From an uncultured Thermoplasmatales archaeon (lineage in GTDB: Archaea > Thermoplasmatota > E2 > DHVEG-1): a stretch of DNA of 64,000 nucleotides. The DNA is taken from NCBI GenBank assembly GCA_964526175.1, contig CAZGIV010000001.1, forward strand, positions 882-64,881, written 5' to 3'. Below, piece after piece: positions 18,928 to 58,107 of this stretch. The notes under the pieces are model-generated. The model did not search any database, was not told where the DNA came from, and saw nothing but the letters and a program-made list of their open reading frames with translations. Numbering within the stretch: the stretch's first letter is position 1; the number at the start of each line of letters is the position of its first letter. The position numbers were made by a program, and so were the translations under genes.

Positions 18928-18931
18928 ATCT

Positions 18932-21447: not shown

Positions 21448-22221
21448 ATGAATAAAAGTCGTCAAATTGTTATTGAGAAGCCTAAAAACAATACAAAAAA
21501 ATCAAAAAATGGAAAATTAAAAACTGGGGAAGTTGAAGTTTTTATTATGGGTAAAAGCTACAAAGTTCCGGCGGGCCTTACAATTATGAAAGCATTAGAA
21601 TTTGCTGGCTATCGATTTATCCGTGGCTGTGGTTGTCGTGCAGGGTTCTGTGGTGCATGCTCTACGGTGTATCGTATCGAGGATGAACAGAAACTAGGAT
21701 TTGATCTTGCCTGCCAGAAAGTTGTTGAAGATAAAATGTATCTTGTTCAACTCCCGTTTGTCCCCGCCTCAAAAGCAGAATATGATATCGAAAAACTTGA
21801 ACCGTCGGACATAACACTTATCACGATGTACCCAGAAATTGCTCGTTGTGTATCATGTAACACGTGTACAAAATCATGCCCTCAGGATATCGAAGTGATG
21901 AAATATATTCAATGTGCCATCAGAGGAGATATTGCCAAATGTGCTGAGATCTCATTTGATTGTATTCAATGTGGACTTTGTGCGATGAGATGTCCTGCGG
22001 ATATAAAACATTACCATGTCTCCCAACTCGCTCGACGCCTTCGCGGGAAATATATTGATCCAAAATCAAATAATCTTGCAAAACGGCTAAAGGAAATAGA
22101 AGATAGAAAATACGATAATGAAATTGATGGGCTTATAAAAATGGAGAAAAAAGAAATCACAGAGTTATACAAAAAACGTAAAATAGAAGCTGAAGAAGCA
22201 GTAGCTCAGGGGGGAGACTAA
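21448..22221 (+). CDS. frdB: Succinate dehydrogenase/fumarate reductase iron-sulfur subunit-like protein, lacking a CCG thiol-oxidation domain
   Basis: 2Fe-2S motif CGCRAGFCGACS. 4Fe-4S/3Fe-4S motifs CVSCNTCTKSCP and CIQCGLCAMRCP. SD GGGGAAGG precedes the start. Confidence 0.6.
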   Translation: MNKSRQIVIEKPKNNTKKSKNGKLKTGEVEVFIMGKSYKVPAGLTIMKALEFAGYRFIRGCGCRAGFCGACSTVYRIEDEQKLGFDLACQKVVEDKMYLVQLPFVPASKAEYDIEKLEPSDITLITMYPEIARCVSCNTCTKSCPQDIEVMKYIQCAIRGDIAKCAEISFDCIQCGLCAMRCPADIKHYHVSQLARRLRGKYIDPKSNNLAKRLKEIEDRKYDNEIDGLIKMEKKEITELYKKRKIEAEEAVAQGGD

Positions 22222-22223
22222 TC

Positions 22224-23870
22224 ATGAAATTAATTGATGGGTACCCGGAGTACATGTTAAAATCGATTGCCCTTGTCGAACAAAAACGAAAACGGAATAT
22301 GTCACATCCAGTAAAACCAATGAGTATGAAGGAACGGGAGGAAAATCTCTCAAAATACCATCCTGATTATATGGATGGAACACGAAGGAAACTCAGATTG
22401 GGTGCTGATAAAGGCAAAGAGTTCTATAATGGTATAGCTGATCTTTTAGAAGCAAGACTAGTACTGAATGCAAATGACGTTGATCTCAGTAAAATCGATT
22501 ATGATGTTGATATATTAATTATTGGGGGTGGCGGTGCTGGAACTGTTGCTGCTTTGTTTGCATATGAATCTGGCATTGCATGTGATAAAATTTTAATTGT
22601 GACAAAGCTTCGTCATGGTGATGCAAATTCGATGATGGCTCAAGGCGGGATTCAGGCAGCAGATCGACCGCAGGATAGTCCTGCCCTTCATTATCTTGAT
22701 ATTTATGGCGGTGGCCATTTTACCAATAAACCTGAGCTAGCAAGGGCACTTGCACTAGACGCACCAGGGATTATCAAATGGCATGAAGAACTTGGAGTTA
22801 TGTATGATCGTCAAGATGACGGTGAATTTCAGGAGCTATCTGGTGGTGGGACCTGTCGGAACCGTATGCATAGCGCTAAGGATTACACAGGCATGGAACT
22901 GTTACGAAATATTCGAGACAATGCGAGAAATCTTGAATTACCAGTTCTTGAGTTCTGCCCTATTGTCGAGCTGCTAATGGATAACAAAGGAAAGGTTGCA
23001 GGTGGTGTTGCCTTCAACCTTGAAACTTTTGAATATTATGTGATTCGTGCAAAAGCAACAATCCTTGCCACCGGTGGATCCGGTCGTCTGCATTTATCAA
23101 ACTACCCAACCACGAACCATTATGGTGCCACAGGTGATGGGCTTGTTATGGCGTATCATGTAGGAGCAAACCTTCGCGATCTTGATACCATCCAGATTCA
23201 TCCGACTGGTGATGCATACCCCGAGCCGATCGTTGGAATTCTATCCACAGAAAAAATCAGAGGACTCGGCGCTATCCCGGTCAATGCTAATGGTGACCCA
23301 TTTGTATTCCCCTTGGAGCCTCGTGATGTAGAATCAGCTGCCTTTATTAAAGAATGCAAAGAAGGCCATGGAATAATCACTCCAACCGGCATGCCCGGTG
23401 TTTGGCTTGACACCCCTATGATAGATATCATACATGGTGAGGGAACCTGTGCATTAAAATTATCTGGTGAAGTACGGAAATTCAAACGATTTGATATCGA
23501 CATGGCAAAACATCCCATTCTTGTGTACCCCACGCTTCATTATCAGAATGGCGGCGTTGAAATCAACGAAAAAACTGAGACAAAAATCCCTGGTCTTTTT
23601 GCTGCGGGTGAGGTGACGGGAGGAGTCCATGGTAAAAACAGATTGATGGGGAATTCTCTTCTTGATTACAACGTGTTTGGTCGTCGGGCAGGTATCTATG
23701 CTGCAAAATATGTTAAAAAAGTAAAAATTGGGAAATTAACACTTAGTCATTTAGATAAATACAAAAAAATGATTGAACAAGCAGGTATTGATTCGAAAAA
23801 AACTGCGCCTATTCTTCTTCCTGAATATCGGGGTGAAAAAGCAATCTCTCGCGCACTCGATATCTTCTGA
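22224..23870 (+). CDS. frdA: Fumarate reductase/succinate dehydrogenase flavoprotein subunit (thiol:fumarate reductase TfrA-like)
   Basis: FAD fold DILIIGGGGAGTVAAL. RHGDANSMMAQGGIQA (covalent-FAD His-region analogue). HPTG and LHYQNGGVEIN motifs. Confidence 0.65.
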   Translation: MKLIDGYPEYMLKSIALVEQKRKRNMSHPVKPMSMKEREENLSKYHPDYMDGTRRKLRLGADKGKEFYNGIADLLEARLVLNANDVDLSKIDYDVDILIIGGGGAGTVAALFAYESGIACDKILIVTKLRHGDANSMMAQGGIQAADRPQDSPALHYLDIYGGGHFTNKPELARALALDAPGIIKWHEELGVMYDRQDDGEFQELSGGGTCRNRMHSAKDYTGMELLRNIRDNARNLELPVLEFCPIVELLMDNKGKVAGGVAFNLETFEYYVIRAKATILATGGSGRLHLSNYPTTNHYGATGDGLVMAYHVGANLRDLDTIQIHPTGDAYPEPIVGILSTEKIRGLGAIPVNANGDPFVFPLEPRDVESAAFIKECKEGHGIITPTGMPGVWLDTPMIDIIHGEGTCALKLSGEVRKFKRFDIDMAKHPILVYPTLHYQNGGVEINEKTETKIPGLFAAGEVTGGVHGKNRLMGNSLLDYNVFGRRAGIYAAKYVKKVKIGKLTLSHLDKYKKMIEQAGIDSKKTAPILLPEYRGEKAISRALDIF

Positions 23871-23879
23871 GGTTCTCAT

Positions 23880-24134
23880 ATGATAGAAGTAAATGAAGAT
23901 TGGTGTAAAGGCTGCAACATCTGCATTGAACGATGCCCTGTTGCAGCATTAGAAGAATCAGACACATTAAATAAAAGAGGGATACGCCCACCGAAATTAA
24001 AAAAAGTTAATGAATGTAATGATTGTCGTCTCTGTGAACTCCTTTGCCCTGACATGGCAATCATGGTAGTTCGTGGAGAAAAAAAGAAACAGCAAAAAAA
24101 GAGTTTATTACGACCAGTTGGAGGACGAAGGTAA
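23880..24134 (+). CDS. korD: 2-oxoacid:ferredoxin oxidoreductase delta subunit (2x[4Fe-4S] ferredoxin)
   Basis: CKGCNICIERCP and CNDCRLCELLCP. Immediately precedes the alpha/beta/gamma subunits. Confidence 0.65.
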   Translation: MIEVNEDWCKGCNICIERCPVAALEESDTLNKRGIRPPKLKKVNECNDCRLCELLCPDMAIMVVRGEKKKQQKKSLLRPVGGRR

Positions 24135-25316
24135 ATGATCTATAAACGAGATCCGATACGAATACGTGGTGTCTTAGGTAATAACAAACAATTTATTCTT
24201 GGTGATATGGCCTGTGTCTATGGCGGTATCCTTGCCGGATGTTCATTTTTTGGGGGGTACCCAATAACGCCTGCATCAGAAATCGCTGAGGGAATGGCTC
24301 GATTGCTTCCACGCGTTGGAGGAACATATATCCAAATGGAAGATGAAATTGGAAGTATCGCTGCAGTCATTGGAGCGTCATGGGGTGGCTCAAAATCTAT
24401 GACCGCGACATCAGGTCCTGGTTTTTCACTCATGATGGAAAACTATGGGTATGCAGTGATGACCGAAACCCCCTGTGTTATTGTAAATGTGCAAAGAACT
24501 GGACCATCAACGGGACAACCGACGCTTGGCGCTCAGGGTGATATGATGCAAGTTCGATGGGGAACCCATGGAGACATTGAGGCAATAGCTCTTGCCCCCA
24601 GTACTGTTCAAGAATGCTTAGATTTCACCATTGAAGCGTTTAACCTTGCAGAAAAATATCGCAATCCTGTCTGCGTCATGACTGACGGAGAAGTCGGTCA
24701 TCTGAGAGAACGAATAATCATCCCAGATGAAAAAGATCTAAAGATAGTGAATCGACATCCCGCAACAATCGATAAGAAGAAGTTCATTCCGTTCAGTGAG
24801 TCACAAACCCGAAAAAGCAAGGTGCCTGATTTTCCTACCTTTGGAACCGGGTACCGAACGTATGTGACTGGACTGACTCATAATGAAAAAGGATTCCCAG
24901 CAACAGATAAACAAAAAGATCATGAGAAACTCATTAAAAGAATTACCTCAAAAATATCTGATGACATAGAGAAACTTACCATGGTTGAAAAAACTAATTT
25001 AGAGGATGCAAACATCGCATTTGTCACCTATGGTGCTTCAGCACGACCTGCAGAAACTGCAATGGAACTCGGTAGGCAGAAGGGAATCAAAGTTGGATTG
25101 CTCCGTCTGAAAATGGTCTGGCCGTTTCCAGAAAAAGTCATCCATAAACTCGCAAAAGATGTTGATACCATCATTGTTCCAGAGATGAATCTTGGACAGA
25201 TTGTTCATCCTGTTCGAGAAGCTGCTTGTGGACAATGTGAGGTTATCAGTGCACCAAAAGTCGGTGGAGAAATCCATCTCCCCGATGAATTATTGCAATA
25301 CTTAGGGGGAAAATAA
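24135..25316 (+). CDS. korA: 2-oxoacid (2-oxoglutarate/pyruvate):ferredoxin oxidoreductase alpha subunit
   Basis: ...GDMACVYGGILAGCSFFGGYPITPASEI... is the typical OFOR alpha N-terminus. Contiguous with delta and beta. Confidence 0.7.
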   Translation: MIYKRDPIRIRGVLGNNKQFILGDMACVYGGILAGCSFFGGYPITPASEIAEGMARLLPRVGGTYIQMEDEIGSIAAVIGASWGGSKSMTATSGPGFSLMMENYGYAVMTETPCVIVNVQRTGPSTGQPTLGAQGDMMQVRWGTHGDIEAIALAPSTVQECLDFTIEAFNLAEKYRNPVCVMTDGEVGHLRERIIIPDEKDLKIVNRHPATIDKKKFIPFSESQTRKSKVPDFPTFGTGYRTYVTGLTHNEKGFPATDKQKDHEKLIKRITSKISDDIEKLTMVEKTNLEDANIAFVTYGASARPAETAMELGRQKGIKVGLLRLKMVWPFPEKVIHKLAKDVDTIIVPEMNLGQIVHPVREAACGQCEVISAPKVGGEIHLPDELLQYLGGK

Positions 25317-25317
25317 C

Positions 25318-26205
25318 ATGGTTGAAATGAAAAACGCTGAGGATCTAAATAAAAAATTTCTCCGCGATGGCATGTGGCCAACAATATTTTGTAATGGATG
25401 CGGTGACGGGGTTGTCTTAGAATACACTTTATGGGCGCTTGAAGAACTGGGTTGGGACATGGACAAGGTAGTGTTTGCCTCTGGTATCGGATGTTCCTCA
25501 CGGTTACCAGGGTACATCAACGCCGATGGATTACATACCACCCATGGAAGGGCGCTTGCATTTGCCACAGGGATAAAGGCAGCAAACCCTGAACTCAAAC
25601 TTATTATTTTTACAGGAGATGGTGACTGCGCAGGGATCGGAGGGAACCATTTCATCCATGCGGCACGACGAAATATCGACATGACCGTCATTATGATCAA
25701 TAATTTTATTTATGGAATGACCGGGGGACAACTCTCACCGACGACACCGCTGGGAAGTATAGCGACAACCGCACCCCACGGGAATATCGAACCACCGTTT
25801 GATATCTGTAATTTAGCAAAAGCATTAGGAGCAAATTATGTTGCCCGCTGGACAGTTACTCATCCATATCAACCAATTAAATCAGTGAAAGCTGCCCTTG
25901 AGAAAAAAGGATTTTCCCTTGTTGAATTCCTTGCTCCATGCCCGACGGCGTATGGGCGAAGAAACAAATTAGGTGATATCCAGAAACTCTGGGAATGGTA
26001 TGATAACAACACGATTTTAATTGAGGATTATGAACGAATAATGAATTATGGTACTGATGAGGAGAAAAAACAAATGCGTCATATGTTTCCTATCGGGGTG
26101 TTCCAAGATTTTGATAAACCAGGGTTTTTTGAGGAATATGGAAAACTTGTGAATCGACTCATGGATTCTTCTTCCAGAAAAGAAAAGGTGGTGGTGCAAG
26201 AATGA
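25318..26205 (+). CDS. korB: 2-oxoacid:ferredoxin oxidoreductase beta subunit (TPP-binding)
   Basis: ...FCNGCGDG..., GIGCSSRLPGY, and GDGDCAGIGGNHF (TPP/Mg and [4Fe-4S] ligands). Confidence 0.7.
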   Translation: MVEMKNAEDLNKKFLRDGMWPTIFCNGCGDGVVLEYTLWALEELGWDMDKVVFASGIGCSSRLPGYINADGLHTTHGRALAFATGIKAANPELKLIIFTGDGDCAGIGGNHFIHAARRNIDMTVIMINNFIYGMTGGQLSPTTPLGSIATTAPHGNIEPPFDICNLAKALGANYVARWTVTHPYQPIKSVKAALEKKGFSLVEFLAPCPTAYGRRNKLGDIQKLWEWYDNNTILIEDYERIMNYGTDEEKKQMRHMFPIGVFQDFDKPGFFEEYGKLVNRLMDSSSRKEKVVVQE

Positions 26206-26744
26206 AGAAAGAAATCCGAATCTGTGGTTTTGGTGGTCAGGGTGTTATTTTAGCTGGTTTTATCATTGGAAAAGCAGCAACGGTATTCATGGATTATAAT
26301 GCAGTACAAAGTCAATCCTATGGCCCAGAGGCCCGGGGAGGCGCGGCTCGCTCTGAAGTGATCATTTCTGATGAAAAAATCGGTTACCCACGTCCAATAA
26401 GCGTTGATGTGTTCGTCGCCATGTCCCAGGAGTCATTTGATGCATATCGCAATGATATCCGGGATGATACTCGTATCGTGATTGATCCTGAGCTAGTGAC
26501 GAAACATAATATTGGCCGACCCGTCTACAAAGTACATGCACAGCAAATCGCTGAGAAACTCGGTAACAAAATTGTGACCAATATCGTGATGGTCGGAGCA
26601 GCAACAAGCATCATTGATTTATTGGAGCCTGAAGCAGTGAAAAAGGCTGTCATCGACAGTGTCCCAAGTAGGTTTAAAGAAATGAATGTCATGGCATTTG
26701 AAAAGGGATTAGAGGCAGGGAACAATGCCCTCAAAGAAAAATAA
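26202..26744 (+). CDS. korC: 2-oxoacid:ferredoxin oxidoreductase gamma subunit
   Basis: ICGFGGQGVILAGFIIG is the gamma-subunit signature. Overlaps korB by 4 nt. Confidence 0.7.
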   Translation: MKKEIRICGFGGQGVILAGFIIGKAATVFMDYNAVQSQSYGPEARGGAARSEVIISDEKIGYPRPISVDVFVAMSQESFDAYRNDIRDDTRIVIDPELVTKHNIGRPVYKVHAQQIAEKLGNKIVTNIVMVGAATSIIDLLEPEAVKKAVIDSVPSRFKEMNVMAFEKGLEAGNNALKEK

Positions 26745-29700
26745 TCAAAAAATGGATCATGATTTAGGGATACCCCTTTGCGATGATTATTTCTTCGATG
26801 AACCAGAAGCAATCGAACAAGAAGAAAAAATGCCTGAGCCAGCCAGTACTATCCAAAAAATCTCAGAGGTTGTAACACGGAAGAAAAAACGGATTATCTA
26901 CGGGGATGTACTCATTGTTGGAGCGGGAATCTCAGGAATGCAATCCGCTCTGGATATCGCAGACAAAGGATACAAAGTCGTTATCATTGATAAAACATCT
27001 ACGATCGGCGGGGCGATGGTAAAACTTGATAAAACATTTCCCACGAATGACTGCTCGATTTGTACCGCTGCCCCAAAAATGGTTGAGCTCGCTCGTCATC
27101 CAAATATTGAACTTATTACCTATGCTGAGATGAATAAACTTGTTGGTAAAAAAGGTGACTTTACCGCACAGATCTGGAAAAAAAGTAAATATGTTGACCC
27201 GGATAAGTGCACGGGATGCGGTGATTGCGCCGAAGTCTGTCCCGTTGAAATCATAAGTCCGTTTGATGAAAAAATATCGACACGAAAAGCTGTCTACATT
27301 GAATTTCCACAAGCAGTTCCAATCGTGTATACGGTCGATATCGAAAAGTGCGTTGGTTGTGGTTCTTGCGACAGGGTCTGCGAACCAGCAGCGATTAGTT
27401 TTTTAGAAAAATCAGAAGAAATTGAAGTTCATGCAGGAAGCATTATCATCGCGACCGGTTTTGAGGTCTTTGAACCAACAGAAATTCGAAAAGAATACGG
27501 ATACGGGAAATACGAAAACGTCCTCACCGCAATGCAAATCGAACGACTGCTTTCTTCGTTTGGACCAACCAGTGGTAAGGTCCTACGTCCCTCAGATTAT
27601 AAAAAACCAAAAAAAATCGGATGGATTCAATGTGTCGGCTCACGAAGCGAACAACAAGGGTACCCATATTGTTCACGTGTGTGCTGCATGTACGCAACCA
27701 AGGAAGCATCCATTGTCAAAGAATCAAATCCAGAGATAAACATCACTATTTATTATATGGATATCCGTGCCTATGGAAAGGATTTTCAACAATACTATGA
27801 TCATGCGAAAAAACTTGGAGTCAAATATGTTCGTGGACGACCATCCTCAGTATATGAGAATAAGAATAAGAGTCTGATAGTACGGTATAAGGATACCCTC
27901 ACAGGAAAAATCAAAGAGGATACGGTTGATCTGTTAGTCTTATCAACATCCATTATTCCTGCGAAAGGAAATAAGAAACTTGCAGAAATCATTGGCTTAG
28001 AAGTCGATGAAAATGGTTTTTTCAAACAGGAGTCTCTCCTTGAGAACCCAGTAGAATCCTCTAAAGAAGGCGTGTATCTGGCAGGATGTATCCAAGGACC
28101 AAAAGATATCCCGGATAGTGTTTCCATGGCCAGTGGGGCTGCTGCAAAAGCGGTTGCTCCGATTAAAGATCGACAACGACATATCGGCAAGGAATTTCCT
28201 CCTGAAAAAGACATTTCCAAAGAAGAGCCACGCATTGGTGTATTTGTGTGTCATTGTGGGAAAAACATTGCTGGGTATCTCGATGTTGAGAAAGTCACTG
28301 AGGAAGTAAAAAAACTTCCGAATGTTACTCATGCTGAACATGTCATGTTTGCCTGTTCACAGGATAGCGGTAAAAAAATCAAAGCTCTCATCAAAGAAAA
28401 AAACCTGAATCGTATTATTGTTGCAGCGTGCTCACCCCGGACCCATGGAGGGTTATTCCAAGATACCTTACTTGAAGCAGGGTTGAATAAATATTTGTTT
28501 GAAATGGCGAACATTCGAAATCAATGCTCATGGGTTCATTCGGATGATTGGGAGAAAGCAACCATAAAAGCTATTGATTTAGTAAAAGCATCTGTCGCAA
28601 AAGTATCTCTTCTTGAACCTCTCAGTGAGGAAGAGTTTTCCATTCTTCCAAGTGTGCTTGTCATCGGCGGGGGAATTTCAGGGATGAAAGCAGCACTGGC
28701 ACTTGCTGAGATGAATGTGAAATCCTATCTTATTGAACGAGAAAAAGAACTCGGTGGCCGCCTCAAACAACTCAATACGATGTTTCCTACAGATAAAAAA
28801 GCCCAGGACATCATCGATCCGTTAATTAAAAAAGTCACGACGAATAAATTGATAACGGTAATGACGGGTGCCGAGCTTGTTAGCATTGAAGGATTTATCG
28901 GGAATTATAAAGGGACAATTAAACAGAAAGGAAAAAAGAAACAGCTTGGCATTGGAACAATTATTGTCGCAACCGGTTTTCGAGAAATTGATCTTAAAGG
29001 AGAATATCAACATAAAATAAATGAAAATATTTTATCTCAGACAGAGCTTGAGGAAAAAATTAAAAAAGGGACATTGAAAAAACCCAAAAATGTCGTCATC
29101 ATCAATTGCGCAGGAGCAATGGATGAACAACGACCGTATTGTTGCCGTATTGGGTGTGGAGTTGCGATTAAAAACGCAAAAGTAATTAGTGAAAAGTACC
29201 CCGGCTCAAAAATCTATCTCTTATATCGTGACATGAGGGTGTTTGGGAAAGAGGAAGAAGAATATTATTCGAACGTTATTAAAAATCATCATGTGACGGT
29301 TATTCGCTATCCCGGTGAGAAAAAACCAGAGGTTATTCTTGATAAAAAAGATCCGAAAAAGGGTCCGATGAAGATTAAAGTCTATGATGATATCCTTGAA
29401 GAGGAGCTGACGCTTCCTGCAGATCTCGTTGTTCTTACCGTGAACACTGAAGGTGAGGTGCTGACAGAGTCGCTGAAGAACATGCTGAAGATACCAGCTG
29501 ATTCCGCAGGATTCTTTTTAGAGGCCCATGCAAAAATCCGTCCGTTGGATTTCGCAACCGATGGGATTTACCTTTGCGGAGCGGCCCATTACCCGAAGAA
29601 TCTCGTTGATTCTATTGCTCAAGCAGAAGGTGCTGCATCCCGTGCAGCAATCCCGATTATGCAGGAGAAAATGAAAGGAGAAGGCCAAGTTGCAGAAGTC

Positions 29701-30362: not shown

Positions 30363-30376
30363 AAGAACAATAAAAA

Positions 30377-31282: not shown

Positions 31283-31289
31283 AAAAAAC

Positions 31290-33763: not shown

Positions 33764-33775
33764 AGGAAAACAGAG

Positions 33776-34267: not shown

Positions 34268-34291
34268 AAAAATTTGAGGTGAGCACAGAAG

Positions 34292-36138: not shown

Positions 36139-36163
36139 ACGATCTTGTTATGAGGGAGTAATT

Positions 36164-44632: not shown

Positions 44633-44701
44633 AAAAAAAATATATGCGTCTCATAGTTCTACATGCATGACATAATGGGGTGCTGAGCGGATGGCGAAGG
44701 T

Positions 44702-45130: not shown

Positions 45131-46077
45131 AGATTTCGCAAATTCAAGCAGAAGCAAGAAAAATTTTTGATACCTATGACGTGCAATATATTTTAGGGTA
45201 TTCAAACGAATCGTTCGGGATTCAGCCTGTACCGTTTTTTGCGAAAAAGAAACCGGATGTCAACCATCTTATTTTCTCTCCGTTTTGTGTGAATAATCTT
45301 ACGATGTATCTGAAAAATTATGAGGGAAATGAAAAAATTGGTATTGTCGTGAAAGGTTGTGATAGCCGCTCATTAATCCAATTAATTATAGAAAAGAGGA
45401 TACCTCGTGAAAATCTTGTCATTATTGGAATCTCTTGCGGTGGCGTTATCGATCAGAAAAAATTTCAAACCAAGTTCCCCGATGTTATCGGCTCAGTAGA
45501 TGTTGTAGAAAAAGATGACCTGTTTATTTTCACCATTGCTGGAAAGAAGCATCAGGTTTCAAAGAAAGAAGTTCTGTTAGAGAAATGCATCCATTGTGAG
45601 TACCCTACTCCGTTGCTGTATGATGTTCTTCTGGGAGAAAAAAAACAGCCTTTTAAATCGGAGAGTTATTCTGATGTGAAACAAATTGAGGCAAAATCCC
45701 TTCAGGAGAAATGGAATTTTTGGGAAAAACAGTTTAGTCGTTGTATCCGATGTTATGCGTGTCGAAATATCTGTCCAGTCTGTTTTTGTAAAGAGTGTTC
45801 AGCTGAGCAGTTAAACCCGCAATGGCTGAGACGGTCAGTAACAATTTCAGAAAACACGGTATGGCATTTGACAAGAGCGTTACATGTTGCTGGACGCTGT
45901 ACAGGATGTGGTGAATGCGAACGCGTTTGTCCAATGAGTATCCCATTAATGTTGCTCAATAAGAAAATGCTCAAAGAGGTAAAAGATTTATTTGAGTATA
46001 CGCCAGGAATATCTGTTGATGCTAAACCTCTTCTCGCTGCCTATAAACCCGATGACCCAGAGGATTGTATCATTTAG
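45124..46077 (+). CDS. FrhB/FdhB-family-like Fe-S (flavo)protein
   Basis: The N-terminal region (...KIGIVVKGCDSRSLIQLI...ISCGGVIDQ...) resembles the FrhB-type fold. C-terminal Cys clusters CIRCYACRNICPVCFC and CTGCGECERVCP. The call rests on recalled family features only. Confidence 0.35.
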   Translation: MVEISQIQAEARKIFDTYDVQYILGYSNESFGIQPVPFFAKKKPDVNHLIFSPFCVNNLTMYLKNYEGNEKIGIVVKGCDSRSLIQLIIEKRIPRENLVIIGISCGGVIDQKKFQTKFPDVIGSVDVVEKDDLFIFTIAGKKHQVSKKEVLLEKCIHCEYPTPLLYDVLLGEKKQPFKSESYSDVKQIEAKSLQEKWNFWEKQFSRCIRCYACRNICPVCFCKECSAEQLNPQWLRRSVTISENTVWHLTRALHVAGRCTGCGECERVCPMSIPLMLLNKKMLKEVKDLFEYTPGISVDAKPLLAAYKPDDPEDCII

Positions 46078-46085
46078 GTGAATGA

Positions 46086-47108
46086 ATGAAAAGCTATACG
46101 ATAAAAAAAGATAAAGTATCTGATTTTATTTCACATCTGATAAAGAAGAATATTGTCTGGGGGCCAGTAAAGCAAGACGATACCATTATCTATAAACAAA
46201 TCAACACACCTCAGGAGATAACCCTTGATTTTTTAAAGGTAAAAATACCACCGAAAACAATTGTTTTTCCTCAAACAGAGACGTTAGTACGCTTTCATAA
46301 AGAAAAAGACGTCACGACTGAGACACCATCACCCGAAAAAAAGGACGCCATTATCTTTGGAGTTAGACCCTGCGACGCAAAAAGCTTCCTTCTTTTTGAT
46401 GCAGTGTTCAAAGGTGATTGCGAAGACCCGTTTTATTGCTCAAAAAGAGCTACGACAATTTTGATTGGTCTAACATGTATAAACCCACCAATGAATTGTT
46501 TTTGTTCAAGCGTTGGAGGAAACCCTGATGATCCAAGCGGGCTTGACATTCTCCTCACTGATATGACAGATTCATATTATATGGAGATTATTACTGAACG
46601 AGGAGAACACCTCCTAAAGGATTTTATCGGACGTACAGAAGCAACTCAACAAGATACGAAAAAGAGAGACACCATCTGTACGCAAGCCAAAAAAAGTATC
46701 AAACGTCAGGTTTCTGTTGAACGTATCGATTCAATTCTTGATGCAATCTTTGACTCGCCATACTGGGAAACCATAGCACAACGATGCATTGGATGTGGAA
46801 TCTGTACGTTTCTATGCCCAACCTGTCATTGTTTCGACATCCAGGATGAATCATCACAAAACAAAGGGGCACGTGTTCGCATCTGGGACTCCTGTATGTT
46901 CTCAGAATACTCGTGCCATGCCTCTGGGTATAACCCACGAGCGACACAAATGAACCGAGTGCGAAATCGGATCTATCATAAATTTAATTATCTTCTTAAA
47001 AACAATCAGGTTCTAGGTTGTGTAGGATGCGGAAGGTGTATTGACGAATGCCCTGTTCATATTGATATTGTAGAAATTATCAAGAATGCACGGGGGGTGA
47101 AACAGTAA
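46086..47108 (+). CDS. Sulfhydrogenase/anaerobic sulfite reductase beta (HydB/AsrA-like) Fe-S subunit
   Basis: CIGCGICTFLCPTCHCFD and CVGCGRCIDECPVH. Paralog of the minus-strand gene 55411-56451. Confidence 0.55.
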   Translation: MKSYTIKKDKVSDFISHLIKKNIVWGPVKQDDTIIYKQINTPQEITLDFLKVKIPPKTIVFPQTETLVRFHKEKDVTTETPSPEKKDAIIFGVRPCDAKSFLLFDAVFKGDCEDPFYCSKRATTILIGLTCINPPMNCFCSSVGGNPDDPSGLDILLTDMTDSYYMEIITERGEHLLKDFIGRTEATQQDTKKRDTICTQAKKSIKRQVSVERIDSILDAIFDSPYWETIAQRCIGCGICTFLCPTCHCFDIQDESSQNKGARVRIWDSCMFSEYSCHASGYNPRATQMNRVRNRIYHKFNYLLKNNQVLGCVGCGRCIDECPVHIDIVEIIKNARGVKQ

Positions 47109-47941
47109 AAAACCCGTACCTACCTCTCCCGGCAACCATTGAACATATCGTTGAAGAAGTTGGTGGGCAACGAGCGATTAAAACATTCCGGTTAGTTTTT
47201 ACAAATGTAAAAAACAAGCAGGAGTTTGCCTTTCGTCCAGGTCAATGTGTCATGGTTGGTCTTTTAGGAATCGGAGAATGTATGTTTGCGATCTCATCGT
47301 CTCCGACAAAGAAAGAGTTTGTTGAAATAAGTGTCATGAGACATGGGAAAGTTACCAATGCATTGCATAATTGTAAACCAGGGGATTCTGTTGGAATCCG
47401 CGGCCCCTATGGCAATGGCTTTCCTGTTGACAACTGGAGGGGAAAAAACCTCGTATTTATCGGTGGAGGAATCGGCCAAGCACCACTCCGGCCAGTCATT
47501 CAATATGTGATTAATAATCGAAAACAGTATGGAACTATCGATATTTTTTATGGTGCAAGAACCTCGCAAGAGCTTTGTTATAAAAATGAATTTATTGAAT
47601 TAGAAAAACATACTGATTTAAACGTTCATCTCTCAGTTGACAGCGAAGAAAAAGAATGGAAGGGGTTCACAGGGTTTGTTCCTGAAAATCTTAGAAGGAT
47701 AAAACCAGCAGCAAAAAACAGTATTGCAATTACCTGTGGCCCTCCTATAATGATTAAAATCGTTATCGATAATCTCATTCACCTTGGTTTTCCTGAGACG
47801 AATATTTTTACCACGTTGGAAATGAGGATGAAATGCGGTATCGGGAAATGCGGCCGATGTAATGTTGGTCCATTGTATGTCTGTAAGGACGGACCAGTGT
47901 TTTCCTATGATCAATTACACCATATCAAGGGAGAACGATGA
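47105..47941 (+). CDS. Sulfhydrogenase gamma / AsrB / PyrK-like FAD-NAD(P)H oxidoreductase subunit with a C-terminal [2Fe-2S]. The 5' boundary is unresolved: the conserved N-terminus has no canonical start codon.
   Basis: Homology to the paralog (MKNEYQFYPAIIKKIVKE...) begins at (V)KNPYLPLPATIEHIVEEV, encoded from 47105. The codon there is GTA and overlaps the upstream TAA stop. There is no in-frame ATG/GTG/TTG until Met 47252. NAD/FAD motifs GGGIGQAPLRPV. C-terminal CGIGKCGRCNVGPLYVCKDGPVF. Confidence 0.5.
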   Translation, partial: VKNPYLPLPATIEHIVEEVGGQRAIKTFRLVFTNVKNKQEFAFRPGQCVMVGLLGIGECMFAISSSPTKKEFVEISVMRHGKVTNALHNCKPGDSVGIRGPYGNGFPVDNWRGKNLVFIGGGIGQAPLRPVIQYVINNRKQYGTIDIFYGARTSQELCYKNEFIELEKHTDLNVHLSVDSEEKEWKGFTGFVPENLRRIKPAAKNSIAITCGPPIMIKIVIDNLIHLGFPETNIFTTLEMRMKCGIGKCGRCNVGPLYVCKDGPVFSYDQLHHIKGER

Positions 47942-50900
47942 ACGAATCTCAACGAAATGCCAACGGAAAAAAACCTGTGGAAAAACCATCTAAGGTCGTT
48001 TCACAAGTACTTGTCGTCGGGGGCGGGATTTCCGGCATCCAAAGTGCTCTTGATTTAGCGAATTCGGGTTTTAAAGTATATCTTGTTGAAAAGAAGCCAA
48101 GTATTGGGGGAGTCATGGCGCAACTGGATAAAACATTTCCTACCAATGATTGTTCCATGTGCATTCTTTCTCCTAAGCTTGTTGAATCTGGACGACATCC
48201 GAATATTGAAATATTAACAGGTTCAAATGTCGAGCAGGTGAACGGACAAGCAGGTCATTTTCAGGTCACCATACGAAAACACTCCCGGTTTGTAGATATT
48301 GAAAAATGTAAAAGTTGTGGGGATTGTCGTGATGTGTGCCCGGTCATTCAGTCGAATGTGTTTGAAGAAAAGTTGTGTAACCGGAATGCAATCTATCAAT
48401 TGTTTCCTCAGGCAAACCCAAGTGCATATGTGATTGAAAAACAAGGGGTTTCTCCGTGTCGGATAGCTTGCCCAGCTGGACTAAATGCGCATGCATTCAT
48501 CGCGCTTGCATCACAAGAAAAATACGCAGAAGCATATGAACTTATCAAAGAGACCATACCGCTCCCAGGTTCACTTGGTAGAATCTGCTATCATCCTTGT
48601 GAAACTGAATGCAACCGAAAAGATATCGAAGAACCACTCTCCATATGTCGGATTAGACGATTTATTGCTGATTACATGTATGAACATCCAGAGACACTTT
48701 CTGACTATCAAAAAAATAAAAACGAAAAACAACTAGAAAGAAATCAAAAAGGAAGGGGCAACGATCAGAAGGTGGCAATAGTAGGTTCTGGTCCTGCTGG
48801 TATTACTGCTGCGTATGACCTCTCCAAATTAGGATATAAACCTACTATTTTCGAAGCAGAAAAATACAATGGAGGAATGCTCCACTACGGAGTACCAGAC
48901 TACCGACTCCCAAAAGAATATCTTCATAAAGAAATCGACCTCCTCTGTCAAGATCAGCAAATTGAGCTAAAAAACAATCAAAAACTCGGCAGAGACTTCA
49001 CCTTACAAGACCTAAAAAAACAAGGATATAAAGCAATCTTCCTTGCCATCGGTGCTCATAAAAGCCGTAGTGCAGGAATCGAAGGTTGCACTGGAACCGA
49101 CACCTGTGCCCTCGAAGGAGTCGAATATCTCAAGCAACTCAATCGAAATATGATCACCCTAGATTACTTCAAAGGAAAAAAAATCCTTATAATCGGCGGT
49201 GGAAACGTTGCGATGGATTCCGCACGAACCGCCCGGCGACTCGGAGGAAACGTTACTGTCGTCTATAGACGAACCATCAAAGAAATGCCCGCGCACCAGG
49301 AAGAAATCAACCAAGCGGAAGAAGAAGGTATCGAGTTTATCTTTCTTACCGCTCCAACACAACTTCAAAAAAGAGAAAAAGAAACATGTCTCCAGTGCGT
49401 GCGAATGGAACTCGGGGAACCAGATGCTTCTGGACGACGTCGTCCTAAAAAAATTCCAGAATCAGAATTTGACATTTCATGCGATTTTACTATCTTTGCC
49501 ATCGGACAGGAACTTGACACAAAACTCATGGAAGAAAACAAAATTGATATTGGCGAAAACAGGTTCATCAAGGTTGACCCTATCACCTTGCTAACATCAC
49601 AAGACGGGGTCTTTGCTGGTGGAGACGCCGTCACCGGACCAGCATCAGCAGTTGAAGCTATTGCTGCAGGTCACCAAGCCGCGATCTCCATCGACCGCTA
49701 CCTCCACGATGAAGATCAGAAAAAAGGACGAGAACCTCAACCACAAAAGAAAGCTGATATTCCGAAACAAACAATCCATATCCATTCCTCCAGAGAAACT
49801 CCCCTTTTTTTATCCCCTGAAGAACGGATAAAATCCTTTGTCGAAATCGATCAAGGATTCACCAAAGAACAATTCCAACGCGAAGTAAAACGATGCCTCA
49901 ATTGCGCAGGATGCTGCGAATGCTTCCAATGTGTTCAGCATTGTGAACCTGATGCCATTGATCATACTATGAAAGATAAAACAATAACCTTAGATGTCGG
50001 ATCGATTATTCTTTCTCCAGGTTTCGATGAATTTCAACCTGAAATAAAACGGGAGTACGGTTATCGTCGTTTTCCAAATGTTATCACAAGTATCGAGTTT
50101 GAACGAATCCTGTCTGCATCAGGACCATACGCTGGTCATGTGGTCCGACCGTCTGACCAGAAAGAACCACGAAAAATAGCATGGATACAATGTGTCGGAT
50201 CAAGAGATGTGAAATTGAATAAAAATTATTGTTCATCAGTCTGTTGTACATACGCGATTAAAGAAGCAGTCATAGCAAAAGAACACGCACCCAACATTCA
50301 ACCAACCATTTTTTATATGGATATGCGCACCTACGGGAAAGGCTTTGAATCATACTATAATCGCGCGGAAAAAGAATACGGTGTCAGATTTGTCCGATGT
50401 CGTATCTCCTCAGTCGAAGAGGATAAAAAAACCAAGAATCTCTCAATCAAATATGAAACAGAGGAAGGAACCCTGAAAAAAGAGGACTTTGACCTGGTTG
50501 TGTTATCTGTCGGCCTTAGTTCCCCTGATGATGCTGAAAGTCTTTCCACTGTTTTTGGGGTTAAACTCAATCAGTATAATTTTGCTTCAACAACCTCATT
50601 CGAACCATTCCATACCACCACATCAGGTATTTATGTCGCTGGAGCGTTTTCCGGTCCGAAGGATATTCCCGAGACAGTCACCCAAGCGAGTGGCGCAGCA
50701 GCTTTAGCATCCGCTCTTCTTTCAAAAGCCAGAGGGGATTGTGTGACAGTGAAACAATATCCTCCATTAAAAGACGTACAATATTCAACACCCCGAGTTG
50801 GTGTGTTCATTTGCCACTGTGGAAGCAACATTGGAGGGTTCCTTGATGTCTCTTCGATTACTGAATATTCAAAAAACCTTCCTTTTGTCGTCTATGCGGA

Positions 50901-52473
50901 AAATAACTTATTTACTTGTTCTCAGGATACACAGACCCATATCAAGGACATCATTAATGAGTATGATATTAACCGGGTCGTTGTTGCTTCATGTACACCA
51001 CGAACTCATGAACCATTATTCCAAGAAACAATTCGGGAAGCAGGATTAAATCCTCATCTTTTTGAGATGGCAAACATCCGAGATCAGTGCTCCTGGGTGC
51101 ATATGAAGGAGCCAAAAGAGGCAACAGAGAAAGCAAAGGATCTTCTTCGAATGGCGGTTTCAAAAGCAGCATTATTACAACCGTTACCAATCGTAACACT
51201 GCCCGTGAATCAAAATGCGTTGGTGATCGGTGGTGGACTTACTGGATTAATCGCTTCAGTCAAGTTAGCTGAAGAAGGTTTCCCCGTGTATTTAGTTGAG
51301 AAAGAAAAAGAACTTGGTGGGAACCTCCGACATATTTATTCGACAATTAATGGAGGAGATGTACAATCATTCCTTCATAATTTAATTCAGAAAGTTAAGG
51401 ATAATTCCCACATTCATGTTTTCACAGACACACAAATCGATTCTCTCAACGGCTATGTCGGCAATTTTACAACCGTTATTAAGAATAGGAATGATACCAA
51501 GGAATTGCACCATGGAATTATCCTAGTAGCAACCGGTGCACAAGAATATCAGCCCTCTGAGTATCTTTATGGCAAAGATACACGAGTCCTTACGCAACGT
51601 GAATTTGAACAACTGTTGACAAAAAAAGAAGTTCCTGTACAAAAACCAGAAACCATTGTGATGATTCAATGCGTTGGCTCCCGAGATGAGCAACGACCGT
51701 ATTGTAGTAGAATCTGTTGTACAGAGGCAATAAAGAACGCATTAAATTACTCAGATCAAAACAAAAACGCTGCTATTTACGTGTTATATCAAGATATCCG
51801 GACATATGGGTTCAGAGAGGAATATTATCAAAAGGCACGAGAAAAAGGGATTGTCTTTCTTCATTATACCCCTGAGAAAAAACCAATCGTGCAGAATACG
51901 AATGGAAAGCTAACGATACGTATATACGATGTTATTTTAGGTGAGGATGTTCTCATTGACGCTGATTATTTGGTGTTAAGCACAGGAATAATTCCCCTGC
52001 CCGAGAATCAGTTGTTATCAAAGCTTCTTAAAGTTCCATTGAATGAAGATGGATTCTTCTTAGAAGCACATGTGAAACTCCGACCAGTGGATTTTGCAAC
52101 GGATGGGATCTTTCTTGCGGGTTTTGCGCATTCTCCAATGTTTATTGAAGAAAGTATTGCACAAGCCTGCGCTGCTGTCTCTCGTGCTTGTACGATTTTA
52201 AGTAAAGAATCACTGAAGCTTCCTGGAACAATCGCTAAGGTCAATGAAGAGCGATGTGCCGGTTGTGGGTTATGCGAACAGGTTTGTGTCTACAAGGCCA
52301 TTGAACTGGTAAAAAAGAAGATAAAAGGTAAAGAGCAGTTAGTCGCGATCGTCAATGAGGGGATATGTAAAGGGTGCGGGGTATGTGCAGGTGCCTGTTT
52401 TTCAGGAGCAATCACCCATAGAGGGTATAAAGATGAACAAATCCTTGCTATGATACACTCAATGGAAAAATAA
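47938..52473 (+). CDS. hdrA: Second giant HdrA-GltD fusion (1511 aa). It has the same architecture as 39665-44632 and carries two tracts converted against that gene.
   Basis: VLVVGGGISGIQSALDLANSGF...NDCSMC.... GltD-like KVAIVGSGPAGITAAYDLSKLGY and IIGGGNVAMDSARTARRLGG. ...YCSSVCCTYA.... N-domain RVGVFICHCGSNI...CTPRTH...ANIRDQCSWVH. ALVIGGGLTGLIASVKLAEEGF. C-terminal CAGCGLCEQVC...CKGCGVCAGACFSGAI. Confidence 0.7.
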   Translation: MNESQRNANGKKPVEKPSKVVSQVLVVGGGISGIQSALDLANSGFKVYLVEKKPSIGGVMAQLDKTFPTNDCSMCILSPKLVESGRHPNIEILTGSNVEQVNGQAGHFQVTIRKHSRFVDIEKCKSCGDCRDVCPVIQSNVFEEKLCNRNAIYQLFPQANPSAYVIEKQGVSPCRIACPAGLNAHAFIALASQEKYAEAYELIKETIPLPGSLGRICYHPCETECNRKDIEEPLSICRIRRFIADYMYEHPETLSDYQKNKNEKQLERNQKGRGNDQKVAIVGSGPAGITAAYDLSKLGYKPTIFEAEKYNGGMLHYGVPDYRLPKEYLHKEIDLLCQDQQIELKNNQKLGRDFTLQDLKKQGYKAIFLAIGAHKSRSAGIEGCTGTDTCALEGVEYLKQLNRNMITLDYFKGKKILIIGGGNVAMDSARTARRLGGNVTVVYRRTIKEMPAHQEEINQAEEEGIEFIFLTAPTQLQKREKETCLQCVRMELGEPDASGRRRPKKIPESEFDISCDFTIFAIGQELDTKLMEENKIDIGENRFIKVDPITLLTSQDGVFAGGDAVTGPASAVEAIAAGHQAAISIDRYLHDEDQKKGREPQPQKKADIPKQTIHIHSSRETPLFLSPEERIKSFVEIDQGFTKEQFQREVKRCLNCAGCCECFQCVQHCEPDAIDHTMKDKTITLDVGSIILSPGFDEFQPEIKREYGYRRFPNVITSIEFERILSASGPYAGHVVRPSDQKEPRKIAWIQCVGSRDVKLNKNYCSSVCCTYAIKEAVIAKEHAPNIQPTIFYMDMRTYGKGFESYYNRAEKEYGVRFVRCRISSVEEDKKTKNLSIKYETEEGTLKKEDFDLVVLSVGLSSPDDAESLSTVFGVKLNQYNFASTTSFEPFHTTTSGIYVAGAFSGPKDIPETVTQASGAAALASALLSKARGDCVTVKQYPPLKDVQYSTPRVGVFICHCGSNIGGFLDVSSITEYSKNLPFVVYAENNLFTCSQDTQTHIKDIINEYDINRVVVASCTPRTHEPLFQETIREAGLNPHLFEMANIRDQCSWVHMKEPKEATEKAKDLLRMAVSKAALLQPLPIVTLPVNQNALVIGGGLTGLIASVKLAEEGFPVYLVEKEKELGGNLRHIYSTINGGDVQSFLHNLIQKVKDNSHIHVFTDTQIDSLNGYVGNFTTVIKNRNDTKELHHGIILVATGAQEYQPSEYLYGKDTRVLTQREFEQLLTKKEVPVQKPETIVMIQCVGSRDEQRPYCSRICCTEAIKNALNYSDQNKNAAIYVLYQDIRTYGFREEYYQKAREKGIVFLHYTPEKKPIVQNTNGKLTIRIYDVILGEDVLIDADYLVLSTGIIPLPENQLLSKLLKVPLNEDGFFLEAHVKLRPVDFATDGIFLAGFAHSPMFIEESIAQACAAVSRACTILSKESLKLPGTIAKVNEERCAGCGLCEQVCVYKAIELVKKKIKGKEQLVAIVNEGICKGCGVCAGACFSGAITHRGYKDEQILAMIHSMEK

Positions 52474-54544: not shown

Positions 54545-54561
54545 AGTGTTATTTCAACCTC

Positions 54562-55392: not shown

Positions 55393-55410
55393 GGTTGCCT
55401 GTTGTATAGG

Positions 55411-57216: not shown

Positions 57217-57221
57217 ACATC

Positions 57222-58103: not shown

Positions 58104-58107
58104 GCAC

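Follow-up and report, generated by a model that had tools for sequence, protein, structure and literature searches.

The 64,000-nucleotide stretch of an uncultured Thermoplasmatales archaeon analysed here (contig CAZGIV010000001.1, positions 882 to 64,881; from here on "the window") carries an array of 24 consecutive open reading frames (ORFs), all co-directional on the + strand, at positions 21448-52473 (31 kb). This agrees with an earlier sequence-only reading of the stretch, which had described a 31-kb run of about 24 genes from an frdB-like gene to a second giant hdrA. Look-ups of exact sequences assign the window to an uncultured member of the Thermoplasmatota, near-identical proteins bearing the names "Thermoplasmata archaeon M11B2D" and "Candidatus Thermoplasmatota archaeon". 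The genes can be grouped in three modules: module 1 (g1-g13), module 2 (g14-g16) and module 3 (g17-g24). Our principal result, which we hold as probable with moderate confidence, is that module 1 would encode a soluble system of flavin-based electron bifurcation, with fumarate in the position occupied in methanogens by the CoM-S-S-CoB heterodisulfide. Directly observed are the gene content, the motifs for cofactors, the catalytic residues and a synteny that extends across phyla; from these we infer a physical complex, the direction of electron flow, its bifurcation, and fumarate and 2-oxoglutarate as substrates.

In the proposed system MvhAG would oxidise H2 and MvhD would pass the electrons to the FAD of a tandem HdrA (g7). 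One electron would then go uphill to ferredoxin, and the other would go downhill through HdrC (g8), the CCG clusters of HdrB (g9) and the 2Fe-2S and 2x[4Fe-4S] clusters of g1 to the non-covalent FAD of g2, where fumarate would be reduced to succinate. KorDABC would use the reduced ferredoxin for the reductive carboxylation of succinyl-CoA, and together with the products of the divergent sucCD and the fumarase genes the route would run from malate via fumarate, succinate and succinyl-CoA to 2-oxoglutarate. Given potentials of -414 mV for H2, +33 mV for fumarate/succinate and about -500 mV for ferredoxin, H2 can drive the reduction of both acceptors together, and bifurcation at HdrA is the most economical reading.

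The flavoprotein g2 and its Fe-S partner g1

The first gene of the array, g1 (21448..22221, + strand), encodes an FrdB-like Fe-S subunit of 257 amino acids (aa), in which a beta-grasp [2Fe-2S] domain at the N-terminus and a helical, HdrC-like 2x[4Fe-4S] domain are predicted. Its cysteine motifs, which do not vary among 60 diverse homologs, are C63-x4-C68-x2-C71...C89 (2Fe-2S) and then two complete CxxCxxCxxxCP, and the predicted clusters are one 2Fe-2S and 2x[4Fe-4S], with no 3Fe-4S centre. The sequence-only reading had listed 2Fe-2S, 4Fe-4S and 3Fe-4S motifs, of which the first two stand and the third does not, the second CxxCxxCxxxCP being complete. It had also stated that the protein has no CCG domain, and this is borne out: Pfam gives no CCG match in g1, and the TfrB model (488 positions) aligns to it over positions 18-83 only, with 31.6 bits against a cutoff of 385. 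Neither Fer2_3 nor TIGR00384 (dhsB) matches g1. Membership of the FrdB family was examined with phmmer and with a 16-sequence profile against all chains of the Protein Data Bank (PDB) and was rejected; no SdhB/FrdB chain is found among the best 60 of 212 matches to the g1-family profile, these 60 being generic 2x[4Fe-4S] ferredoxins. We therefore speak of an FrdB-like layout of g1 instead of assigning it to the FrdB family. The top NCBIfam match of g1, cdhA, is spurious. Homologs of g1 bear inconsistent public labels, including "heterodisulfide reductase subunit C", "ferredoxin", "formate hydrogenlyase subunit 6", "Sdh/Frd-like Fe-S protein" and, in one paper, "CdhA"; the family, for which there is no curated model, numbers at least 7997 clusters at E <= 1e-20.

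The second gene, g2 (22224..23870, + strand), encodes a soluble fumarate-reductase-type flavoprotein of 548 aa with FAD_binding_2 as the only domain recognised by Pfam and NCBIfam (PF00890, residues 96-479, 222 bits). PF02910 (Succ_DH_flav_C) has no match in g2 or in the 120 homologs listed, and 28 residues lie past the aligned region. The best curated model is TfrA, with 306.5 bits against a cutoff of 718 over model positions 6-427 of 546; the NadB model gives 230 bits against a cutoff of 453. When g2 is aligned with E. coli FrdA and M. smegmatis Sdh1, the dicarboxylate site is seen to be intact (the His of HPTG, T-E, the Arg of PRD, the His of LHY and the Arg of NRL), and its residues are invariant in the family alignment (A1). 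The His that binds FAD covalently is replaced by Asn, RSHTVAAQGG of E. coli FrdA being aligned with GDANSMMAQGG; soluble fumarate reductases likewise have no covalent FAD link. A hallmark of the family in the same alignment is an N-terminal extension of 95 aa with an invariant HPDY-type motif. The sequence-only reading had taken the pair for a possibly split thiol:fumarate reductase. As g2 stays far below the TfrA cutoff, has no C-terminal domain and carries an extension of its own, and as the fold of g1 appears nearer to HdrC than to SdhB, we do not count g1 and g2 as members of TfrAB.

Natural fusions of g1 and g2 are known. An exhaustive search of 1.8 billion representatives returned one of 727 aa, and four more were found later, so that five are available (P0181 and P0330-P0333, 709-737 aa). 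In the AlphaFold2 (AF2) model of P0181, Foldseek ranks E. coli FrdA first among the matches to the flavoprotein part, which is 46% identical to g2 and nearest to FrdA, Sdh flavoproteins and flavocytochrome c3 fumarate reductases. These five fusions, and the adjacency of the two genes in nearly all distant loci described below, indicate that g1 and g2 form one enzyme.

Partners of the pair in module 1 and in other phyla

Downstream of g2 are found korD, korA, korB and korC (g3-g6; 23880..26744, + strand; Pfam, NCBIfam) for a four-subunit 2-oxoacid:ferredoxin oxidoreductase. KorA of the array passes the generic 2-oxoacid:acceptor model PRK08659 (560 against a cutoff of 411), and the array Kor is below cutoff for the 2-oxoglutarate-specific models; its substrate is probably 2-oxoglutarate, to judge from the adjacent sucCD. 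The next gene, g7 (26725..29940, + strand), encodes a tandem HdrA-HdrA fusion of 1071 aa, recognised by BLASTP mapping and by NCBIfam HdrA2 (1022 bits). With the canonical HdrA of the window (673 aa, 58081-60102) as the reference, BLASTP aligns residues 19-467 of g7 to HdrA 110-565, and residues 498-728 and 743-1065 to HdrA 7-236 and 337-666. Archaeal proteins in which duplicated HdrA is fused have been described before (PMC11237513).

The HdrA gene is followed by those for HdrC (g8, 141 aa) and HdrB (g9, 301 aa), located at 29937..31282 on the + strand (Pfam Fer4_8, CCG x2). The protein g9 aligns to the solved HdrB 8rvu_b (E 2.7e-38) and keeps the ten Cys of both CCG motifs. Module 1 is completed by MvhG (g10), MvhA (g11), a HycI-type maturation protease (g12) and MvhD (g13), encoded at 31290..34723 (+ strand), with VhuG, VhuA and VhuD as top matches (Pfam, NCBIfam); they make up a [NiFe] hydrogenase module of the F420-non-reducing Mvh/Vhu type. 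All six subunit types of MvhADG-HdrABC are thus encoded (g7, g8, g9, g10, g11 and g13), in addition to the protease, with scores under the methanogen equivalog cutoffs (HdrB 165 against 345, HdrC 84 against 160, HdrA2 1022 against 1100, VhuA 440 against 800).

The sequence-only reading had pointed out that HdrC and HdrB genes follow the FrdB-like gene in the same array, and had suggested that the CCG function is supplied in trans. The array in fact holds three sets of the CCG/HdrC type, the pairs g8/g9 and g17/g18 and the fused HdrC+HdrB-like g15. The TfrB model is matched piecewise by g1 (18-83), g8 (122-230) and g9 (262-465), and the best match of the window to the C-terminal two-thirds of TfrB is g15 (146 bits, model positions 122-480). 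The model MFR_anch_SdhE gives 145 bits with g9 and 155 bits with g18.

The gene neighbourhood of the pair was compared by a scan with one genome per GTDB species, which found at least 597 genomes with a full-length relative of g2. The best 80 loci were kept, and 74 species loci with less than 70% identity make up the distant set; all window proteins were searched by tblastn within ±10 kb. The archaea among the best 80 loci belong to Thermoplasmatota, Theionarchaea, Bathyarchaeota, Heimdall-, Thor- and Borrarchaeota, Culexarchaeia and Desulfurococcales, and the bacteria to Chloroflexota, Aminicenantes, Cloacimonadota, WOR-3, Bipolaricaulota, Spirochaetota, Bacillota, Gallionellales and others.

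In the distant set g1 lies immediately 5' of g2 in 67 of the 71 testable loci. Some Hdr gene is present within ±10 kb in 63 of 74 loci, and a CCG protein (HdrB or an HdrD-like fusion) in 58 of 74. HdrB is immediately 5' of g1 in 33 of 64 testable loci, and g9 is in every case the window paralog that matches this HdrB best, ahead of g18 and of the fourth HdrB of the window; in another 20 loci the gene immediately 5' of g1 encodes FlxA, FlxC, MvhD or HdrA. This synteny lends strong support to the suggested supply of the CCG function in trans by HdrB/HdrC. Other partners among the 74 loci are HdrA (52), MvhD (44), korA (33), FlxA/B/C (18/17/24), MvhA (14), fumarase (12) and sucCD (8), and 443 of 447 Hdr/Mvh/Flx/Kor matches are on the same strand as g1-g2. 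The HdrA adjoining g1-g2 in other phyla is usually of the ordinary type of about 650 aa.

The usual order elsewhere is korDABC - hdrA - mvhD - (mvhGA or flxCBA) - hdrC - hdrB - g1 - g2, and the window's lineage has a rearranged version of this korDABC-hdrA-mvhD-hdrCB-g1-g2 set. Around the HdrCB-g1-g2 core Mvh and Flx are interchangeable (e.g. L009, L012, L016, L045); already in the 74%-identical relative L009 Flx replaces Mvh beside the core and the gene order is shuffled. The full 24-gene order is found only in close relatives (L001 and L084, one 554-kb contig), and across phyla module 1 alone recurs. Gene-neighbourhood conservation, a check named in the sequence-only reading, is thus seen across phyla for module 1 and in close relatives for the array as a whole. 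The predicted conserved minimal unit is hdrC-hdrB-g1-g2 with hdrA/mvhD and a swappable donor, either Mvh (H2) or Flx/HdrL (NAD(P)H), often accompanied by Kor; this core recurs in dozens of phyla.

Known systems and alternative readings

Related arrangements have been described in bacteria. For Endoriftia and Thioflavicoccus mobilis, and also for the Escarpia symbiont, an Hdr-Flx complex was proposed to shuttle electrons directly to 2-oxoglutarate:ferredoxin oxidoreductase (OGOR) and fumarate reductase (Rubin-Blum 2019, PMC6315080), and the genes of the Endoriftia cluster other than tfrAB share differential-expression patterns, with co-expressed intergenic regions (Mitchell et al. 2024, PMC11636981). 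The "succinate operon" of Pseudoclostridium thermosuccinogenes contains fumarase, Flx-Hdr and a two-gene fumarate reductase (PMC7282089). The idea of a CCG/Hdr-coupled Frd-Kor system is thus already published as a hypothesis for bacteria (PMC6315080, PMC11636981, PMC7282089). In the literature searched we found neither a biochemical characterisation of an Hdr-coupled fumarate reductase nor a description of this cluster in Thermoprofundales/MBG-D. Shared with the Endoriftia and Pseudoclostridium clusters are the two-gene soluble fumarate reductase, HdrABC, MvhD/FlxD and co-directionality, and in the Gammaproteobacteria also korABCD; for those clusters, too, a bifurcation of electrons to fumarate and ferredoxin was proposed. 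Here, in contrast, it is the Mvh [NiFe] hydrogenase and not Flx that stands beside Frd/Kor, with the Flx-type module further along the array; HdrA is a tandem protein, the host is an archaeon and the window has no ATP-citrate lyase. Loci of Gallionellales and Eubacteriales (L075, L082, L016, L079) have g1/g2 homologs 52-59% identical in such Flx/Hdr-Frd arrangements, and two of them (L075, L082) show the order g1 g2 hdrC hdrB korDABC hdrA mvhD flxCB, in agreement with the published description of the Endoriftia type. From this gene order we infer that g1/g2 are orthologous to the Endoriftia/T. mobilis and Pseudoclostridium genes. We read the locus as an archaeal variant with Mvh beside the Frd-Kor core, tandem-fused HdrA, and extra HdrL/Flx and GlcDF-like modules in one array. 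In Culexarchaeia, SdhA, "CdhA", HdrA2B2C2 and GcvH are listed as co-located (PMC9723716), and this "CdhA" is probably a protein of the g1 type, given the spurious cdhA match of g1.

Further systems are comparable. TfrAB of Methanothermobacter is also a soluble fumarate reductase with an Fe-S subunit coupled to CCG-type clusters, and has a physiological link to Mvh-Hdr and Kor in methanogens. TfrB, however, carries two CCG domains in its chain whereas g1 has none, TfrA has a C-terminal domain where g2 has instead its N-terminal extension, and the CoM/CoB thiols are not expected in this host. With the methanogen MvhADG-HdrABC complex (5ODC, 7BKB, 8RVU) module 1 shares the six subunit types, both HdrB non-cubane motifs, MvhD and HycI; it differs by the tandem HdrA, by scores below the equivalog cutoffs and by the proposed acceptor, fumarate instead of CoM-S-S-CoB. 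In type E succinate:quinone reductase (SQR) and methylmenaquinol:fumarate reductase (SdhABE) an HdrB-like CCG protein likewise partners an SdhAB-type pair, but these enzymes are membrane-associated, quinone-linked and built of canonical SdhA/SdhB, while the array has an HdrA/MvhD/hydrogenase context and encodes no quinone or membrane component.

It is unlikely, in our view, that the genes encode a true split thiol:fumarate reductase, in which HdrABC-Mvh would reduce a disulfide (of a small thiol or of a protein-bound dithiol such as a lipoyl-H-protein) and g1g2 with a CCG protein would re-oxidise the thiol, the shuttle acting as CoM/CoB do. Such a shuttle is suggested by the architecture of TfrB, which equals a g1-like plus an HdrB-like protein, by the intact disulfide-reducing cluster site of g9, by the lipoate-protein ligase g16 in the array and a bona fide GcvH 4 kb upstream, and by the gcvH gene directly 3' of g2 in Culexarchaeum (L029), a co-location with SdhA/Hdr noted in PMC9723716. 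Yet no thiol carrier gene is consistently linked to the pair: gcvH adjoins g2 in this one of the 74 distant loci, lying about 6.5 kb off on the opposite strand in five others, and LplA is found near g1-g2 in none of the 74. There is usually one HdrCB pair with g1g2, so that reduction and re-oxidation of the shuttle would have to take place at one and the same CCG site, and Thermoplasmatota of the host's type are not known to be methanogens with CoM/CoB. The route from HdrB to g1 has precedents, since CCG clusters feed FrdB-type chains both in TfrB, as parts of one polypeptide, and in the SdhE of type E enzymes. Direct electron wiring between the two appears at least as likely as a thiol shuttle, and a lipoyl-H-protein/LplA pair acting as dithiol relay appears less likely. 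We give even less weight, indeed very little, to the reading that g1g2 is no fumarate reductase and that this FAD_binding_2 enzyme has another substrate, such as L-aspartate, another enoate or a 2-enoyl acid. The curated models are below cutoff for TfrA and NadB alike, g2 has no C-terminal domain and a novel N-terminal extension, and the catalytic residues of NadB are the same as those of fumarate/succinate flavoproteins; TfrA, SdhA and FrdA, however, rank above NadB in sequence and fold, the Fe-S partner subunit is typical of Frd/Sdh and not of NadB, and linkage to fumarase, sucCD and kor is recurrent.

The direction of flow can also be turned round. A confurcating succinate dehydrogenase would then operate during fermentation of amino acids or 2-oxoglutarate, with Kor making reduced ferredoxin, g1g2 oxidising succinate and HdrA merging both electron streams into H2 (Mvh) or NAD(P)H (Flx). 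A peptide-fermenting or syntrophic way of life is ascribed to benthic Thermoplasmatota and several of the other hosts; Kor, SucCD and fumarase can each run in both directions, and bifurcating complexes can do so in principle. We nevertheless judge this direction improbable: g2 has no covalent-FAD His, a residue that in complex II lifts the potential of the flavin and without which succinate is not oxidised efficiently, the mean potential of succinate and ferredoxin is about -230 mV and would reach H2 only at very low H2 pressure, and the bacterial precedents are tied both to fumarate reduction and to the reductive tricarboxylic acid (rTCA) cycle. The array could finally be a redox gene island without any physical complex, made of independent frd-like, kor, hdr/mvh, glcDF-like and flx/hdrL enzymes that share regulation or a ferredoxin pool. 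This fits the 24-gene order kept just in close relatives and shuffled in L009, the local abundance of Hdr genes (four hdr sets and two hydrogenases in the window) and the occurrence of g1-g2 fusions without Hdr. It is hard to reconcile with the finding that groups as distant as Heimdallarchaeota, Bathyarchaeota, Chloroflexota, Aminicenantes and Gallionellales have hdrC-hdrB directly 5' of g1-g2 in the same orientation, and with an HdrB paralog that is always of the g9 type, and we consider it a rather remote explanation.

Several observations weigh against the bifurcating fumarate reductase that we prefer. In the window's own lineage g1-g2 is separated from hdrCB by korDABC and hdrA, and about 15% of the distant loci have no Hdr gene within 10 kb. 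One fused g1-g2 (L086, 8001-10130) lies among cell-envelope polysaccharide genes with no Hdr nearby, which suggests that g1-g2 can work with other electron donors. Both proteins are under every curated family cutoff, and the substrate is therefore deduced. In the Endoriftia cluster tfrAB is the sole exception to the shared expression pattern (PMC11636981). The AF2 model of P0181 was tried as a proxy for the complex and rejected, because its dicluster domain (residues 83-210) has a pLDDT of 35-50, which allows no argument on interfaces or cluster distances; no interface geometry from this model thus backs the proposed wire.

We put forward more tentatively, as a possibility that we would not call probable, a generalisation of the same mechanism. 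In many archaea and bacteria that are not methanogens (Asgard, Bathyarchaeia, Thermoplasmatota, Chloroflexota, Aminicenantes and others) the physiological acceptor of cytoplasmic HdrABC complexes might be fumarate instead of a heterodisulfide, reached by direct transfer from the CCG clusters of HdrB into a dedicated FrdA'/FrdB' enzyme. FrdA'/FrdB' may be a previously unclassified enzyme, characterised by the absence of the C-terminal domain, the HPDY extension, non-covalent FAD and 2Fe-2S plus 2x[4Fe-4S] clusters.

Modules 2 and 3, gene junctions and flanking genes

All 24 ORFs have strong Pfam/NCBIfam matches, and the array is thus genuine coding sequence. It is bordered upstream by a divergent TrmB-like regulator (20053-21141, - strand; Pfam) and downstream by a convergent [NiFe]-hydrogenase gene (52484-53782, - strand). 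The sequence-only reading had seen the array as a combination of rTCA enzymes with Hdr/Mvh modules. Both are present, and the content is more mixed, including also a GlcD/GlcF-like dehydrogenase, a lipoate-protein ligase and a FlxABCD-like NAD(P)H module; within the array the genes of rTCA type are limited to the frdAB-like pair and korDABC, sucCD and fumarase lying upstream, beyond 21448-52473. As that reading had also noted, many start and stop codons overlap: about half of the junctions do so, several by 4 nt, and the others are of 25 nt or less save g19/g20 (69 nt) and an apparent 143-nt gap between g22 and g23 given by mechanical ORF calling. Its statement that no gap exceeds 70 nt is correct once the start of g23 is set at 47105, the 69 nt of g19/g20 being then the largest gap. 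This gap (44633-44701) opens with AAAAAAAATATATG, an A-rich/TATA-like stretch about 55 nt 5' of the start of g20, and AAAAAAAATATATG could be a candidate internal archaeal promoter. Rfam and tRNA scans of the 64-kb window gave no matches, and the oligo-T tracts within the array are all inside coding sequence and uninformative.

The junction of g22 and g23 appears to involve a non-canonical start. The frame of g23 is open across the apparent gap and encodes there the FAD-binding N-terminus. Read from 47105, g23 is 41% identical over 273 aa to the paralog at 54562-55392, aligned from residue 2 of the paralog, and covers positions 2-280 of 288 of the ShyC model; the segment 47105-47251 shows coding-type substitutions against the relatives L084/L085. 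No ATG, GTG or TTG is found at the true start of g23. The codon aligned with Met1 of the paralog is GTA in the window and ATA in L084/L085; it overlaps the stop codon of g22 and sits 4 nt 3' of the Shine-Dalgarno (SD)-like GGGGGTGA/GGAGGTGA. The conservation of this GTA/ATA start in relatives argues that it is not an assembly error, and suggests non-canonical initiation or reinitiation of g23. Programmed -1 frameshifting was considered and rejected, as the G-run CGGGGGGT of the window is broken in the relatives (GGGAGG) while the SD-like motif and GTA/ATA are kept.

Module 2 begins with a GlcD-like FAD-linked 2-hydroxyacid dehydrogenase (g14) and its HdrD/GlcF-like Fe-S/2xCCG partner (g15), encoded at 34708..37267 (+ strand; Pfam FAD_binding_4, FAD-oxidase_C, Fer4_8, CCG); it is probably a 2-hydroxyacid dehydrogenase with a CCG partner of its own. 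The third gene, g16 (37245..38306, + strand), encodes a lipoate-protein ligase of the LplA type (Pfam LplA-B_cat, NCBIfam lipoyltrans) and lies between the GlcDF-like pair and hdrCB. Its likely start is the GTG at 37245, where an AGGAGG motif stands 8 nt upstream. For g16 (TTG 37203) and g17 (ATG 38266) the starts of the longest ORFs are probably placed too far 5'; in relatives g16 is called at 350 aa, as in L084, and g17 at 162 aa, and the apparent overlaps of 65 and 41 nt in this area are likely smaller.

Module 3 starts with the second pair of HdrC (g17) and HdrB (g18) at 38266..39665 (+ strand; Pfam, NCBIfam), g18 having 279 bits to CoB_CoM_SS_B. It continues with an HdrL-like giant of 1655 aa (g19; 39665..44632, + strand; Pfam Fer4_20, Pyr_redox_2; PRK12771 693 bits, HdrA2 1045 bits), and with the MvhD/FlxD-like g20, the FlxC-like Fe-S protein g21 and the AsrA/ShyB-like (FlxB-like) Fe-S protein g22 (44702..47108, + strand; Pfam FlpD, Fer4_8, Fer4_22; NCBIfam ShyB/AsrA). 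These are followed by g23 (47105..47941, + strand), a FlxA/ShyC/PyrK-like NAD(P)H flavoprotein with a 2Fe-2S centre that starts at GTA 47105 and not at ATG 47252, and by a second HdrL-like giant of 1511 aa (g24; 47938..52473, + strand), 57% identical to g19 over 1109 aa. Both giants are g7-type tandem HdrA proteins whose first copy is interrupted by a GltD/NfnB-like NAD(P)H module, so that each of the three HdrA-type proteins in the array is a tandem HdrA-HdrA fusion. HdrL was defined in Desulfobacterium autotrophicum as an HdrA/glutamate-synthase fusion followed by mvhD (PMC2702500). g19 and g24 share with it the combination of HdrA segments and a GltD/NfnB-like module, and g19, but not g24, is followed by mvhD; here, however, there are two HdrA copies per protein and no selenocysteine is apparent. 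By domain composition g20-g23 appear to fit FlxD/C/B/A (MvhD, two Fe-S proteins and an NAD/FAD/2Fe-2S flavoprotein), and they lie beside hdrCB and hdrA-type genes. Their putative counterpart is the FlxABCD-HdrABC NADH dehydrogenase/heterodisulfide reductase of Desulfovibrio vulgaris (Ramos et al. 2015, as cited in PMC7282089 and PMC6315080). In the array the order is flxDCBA, two HdrL-type giants flank the set in place of plain HdrA, and the FlxA start is apparently non-canonical. Module 3, with HdrCB, HdrL x2 and MvhD-FlxCBA, would probably serve as another input of the module 1 kind, driven by NAD(P)H.

The upstream flank of the array is conserved in relatives L001-L008. It holds class I fumarase alpha/beta (15171-16577, + strand; Pfam), GcvH (16963-17397, - strand), which passes the NCBIfam cutoffs and has the lipoyl-Lys context SAKW, a 140-aa ORF of unknown function (17471-17893, - strand) and sucD/sucC (18058-20056, - strand; Pfam). 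No gcvT or gcvP is found near GcvH. GcvH and g16 recall the LbpA/LplA of sulfur-oxidising sHdr systems, L029 being the one distant locus in which gcvH adjoins g2. Upstream of fumarase, 12207-14684 contains a LarA homolog, whose best match is the Ni-pincer malate racemase LarAH6 (381 bits, cutoff 500), beside an acyl-CoA dehydrogenase of the acryloyl-/glutaryl-CoA type; the LarA homolog and g14/g15 hint at an input of D/L-malate or another 2-hydroxyacid into the same pathway. Farther out, 8981-12123 (- strand) encodes a glycerol-3-phosphate (G3P) oxidase/L-2-hydroxyglutarate oxidase-like flavoprotein with BFD 2Fe-2S, a Pyr_redox_2 protein and a 134-aa ORF without family match, a set that resembles archaeal anaerobic G3P dehydrogenase gene sets and is unrelated to the array.

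Downstream and convergent is a four-gene sulfhydrogenase-like (group 3b-type) [NiFe] hydrogenase (52484-56451, - strand; Pfam, NCBIfam) with large, small, PyrK-like gamma and AsrA-like beta subunits. Beyond it a fourth hdrC-hdrB-hdrA set (56689-60102, + strand; Pfam, NCBIfam) includes the canonical HdrA, which is of the type usually beside g1-g2 in other phyla. In total the window encodes four HdrA, four HdrB/C pairs, one HdrD-like protein and two hydrogenases.

To the published bacterial hypothesis the present analysis adds the conserved minimal unit, the hallmarks of the Frd pair, natural fusions and cultivable hosts. The evidence is genomic, and the breadth and tightness of the hdrCB-g1g2 linkage make it a concrete and testable proposal for what Hdr complexes of non-methanogens reduce: the locus, and the at least 597 genomes sharing its core, point to fumarate as one HdrABC acceptor in organisms without CoM/CoB. 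If this is true, anaerobes would have a soluble "fumarate respiration", that is a membrane-free conversion of H2 or NAD(P)H into low-potential reduced ferredoxin for the adjacent 2-oxoglutarate synthase, which would drive the hardest step of the reductive TCA branch, from succinyl-CoA to 2-oxoglutarate. The locus is also relevant to how abundant benthic archaea cycle carbon and hydrogen.

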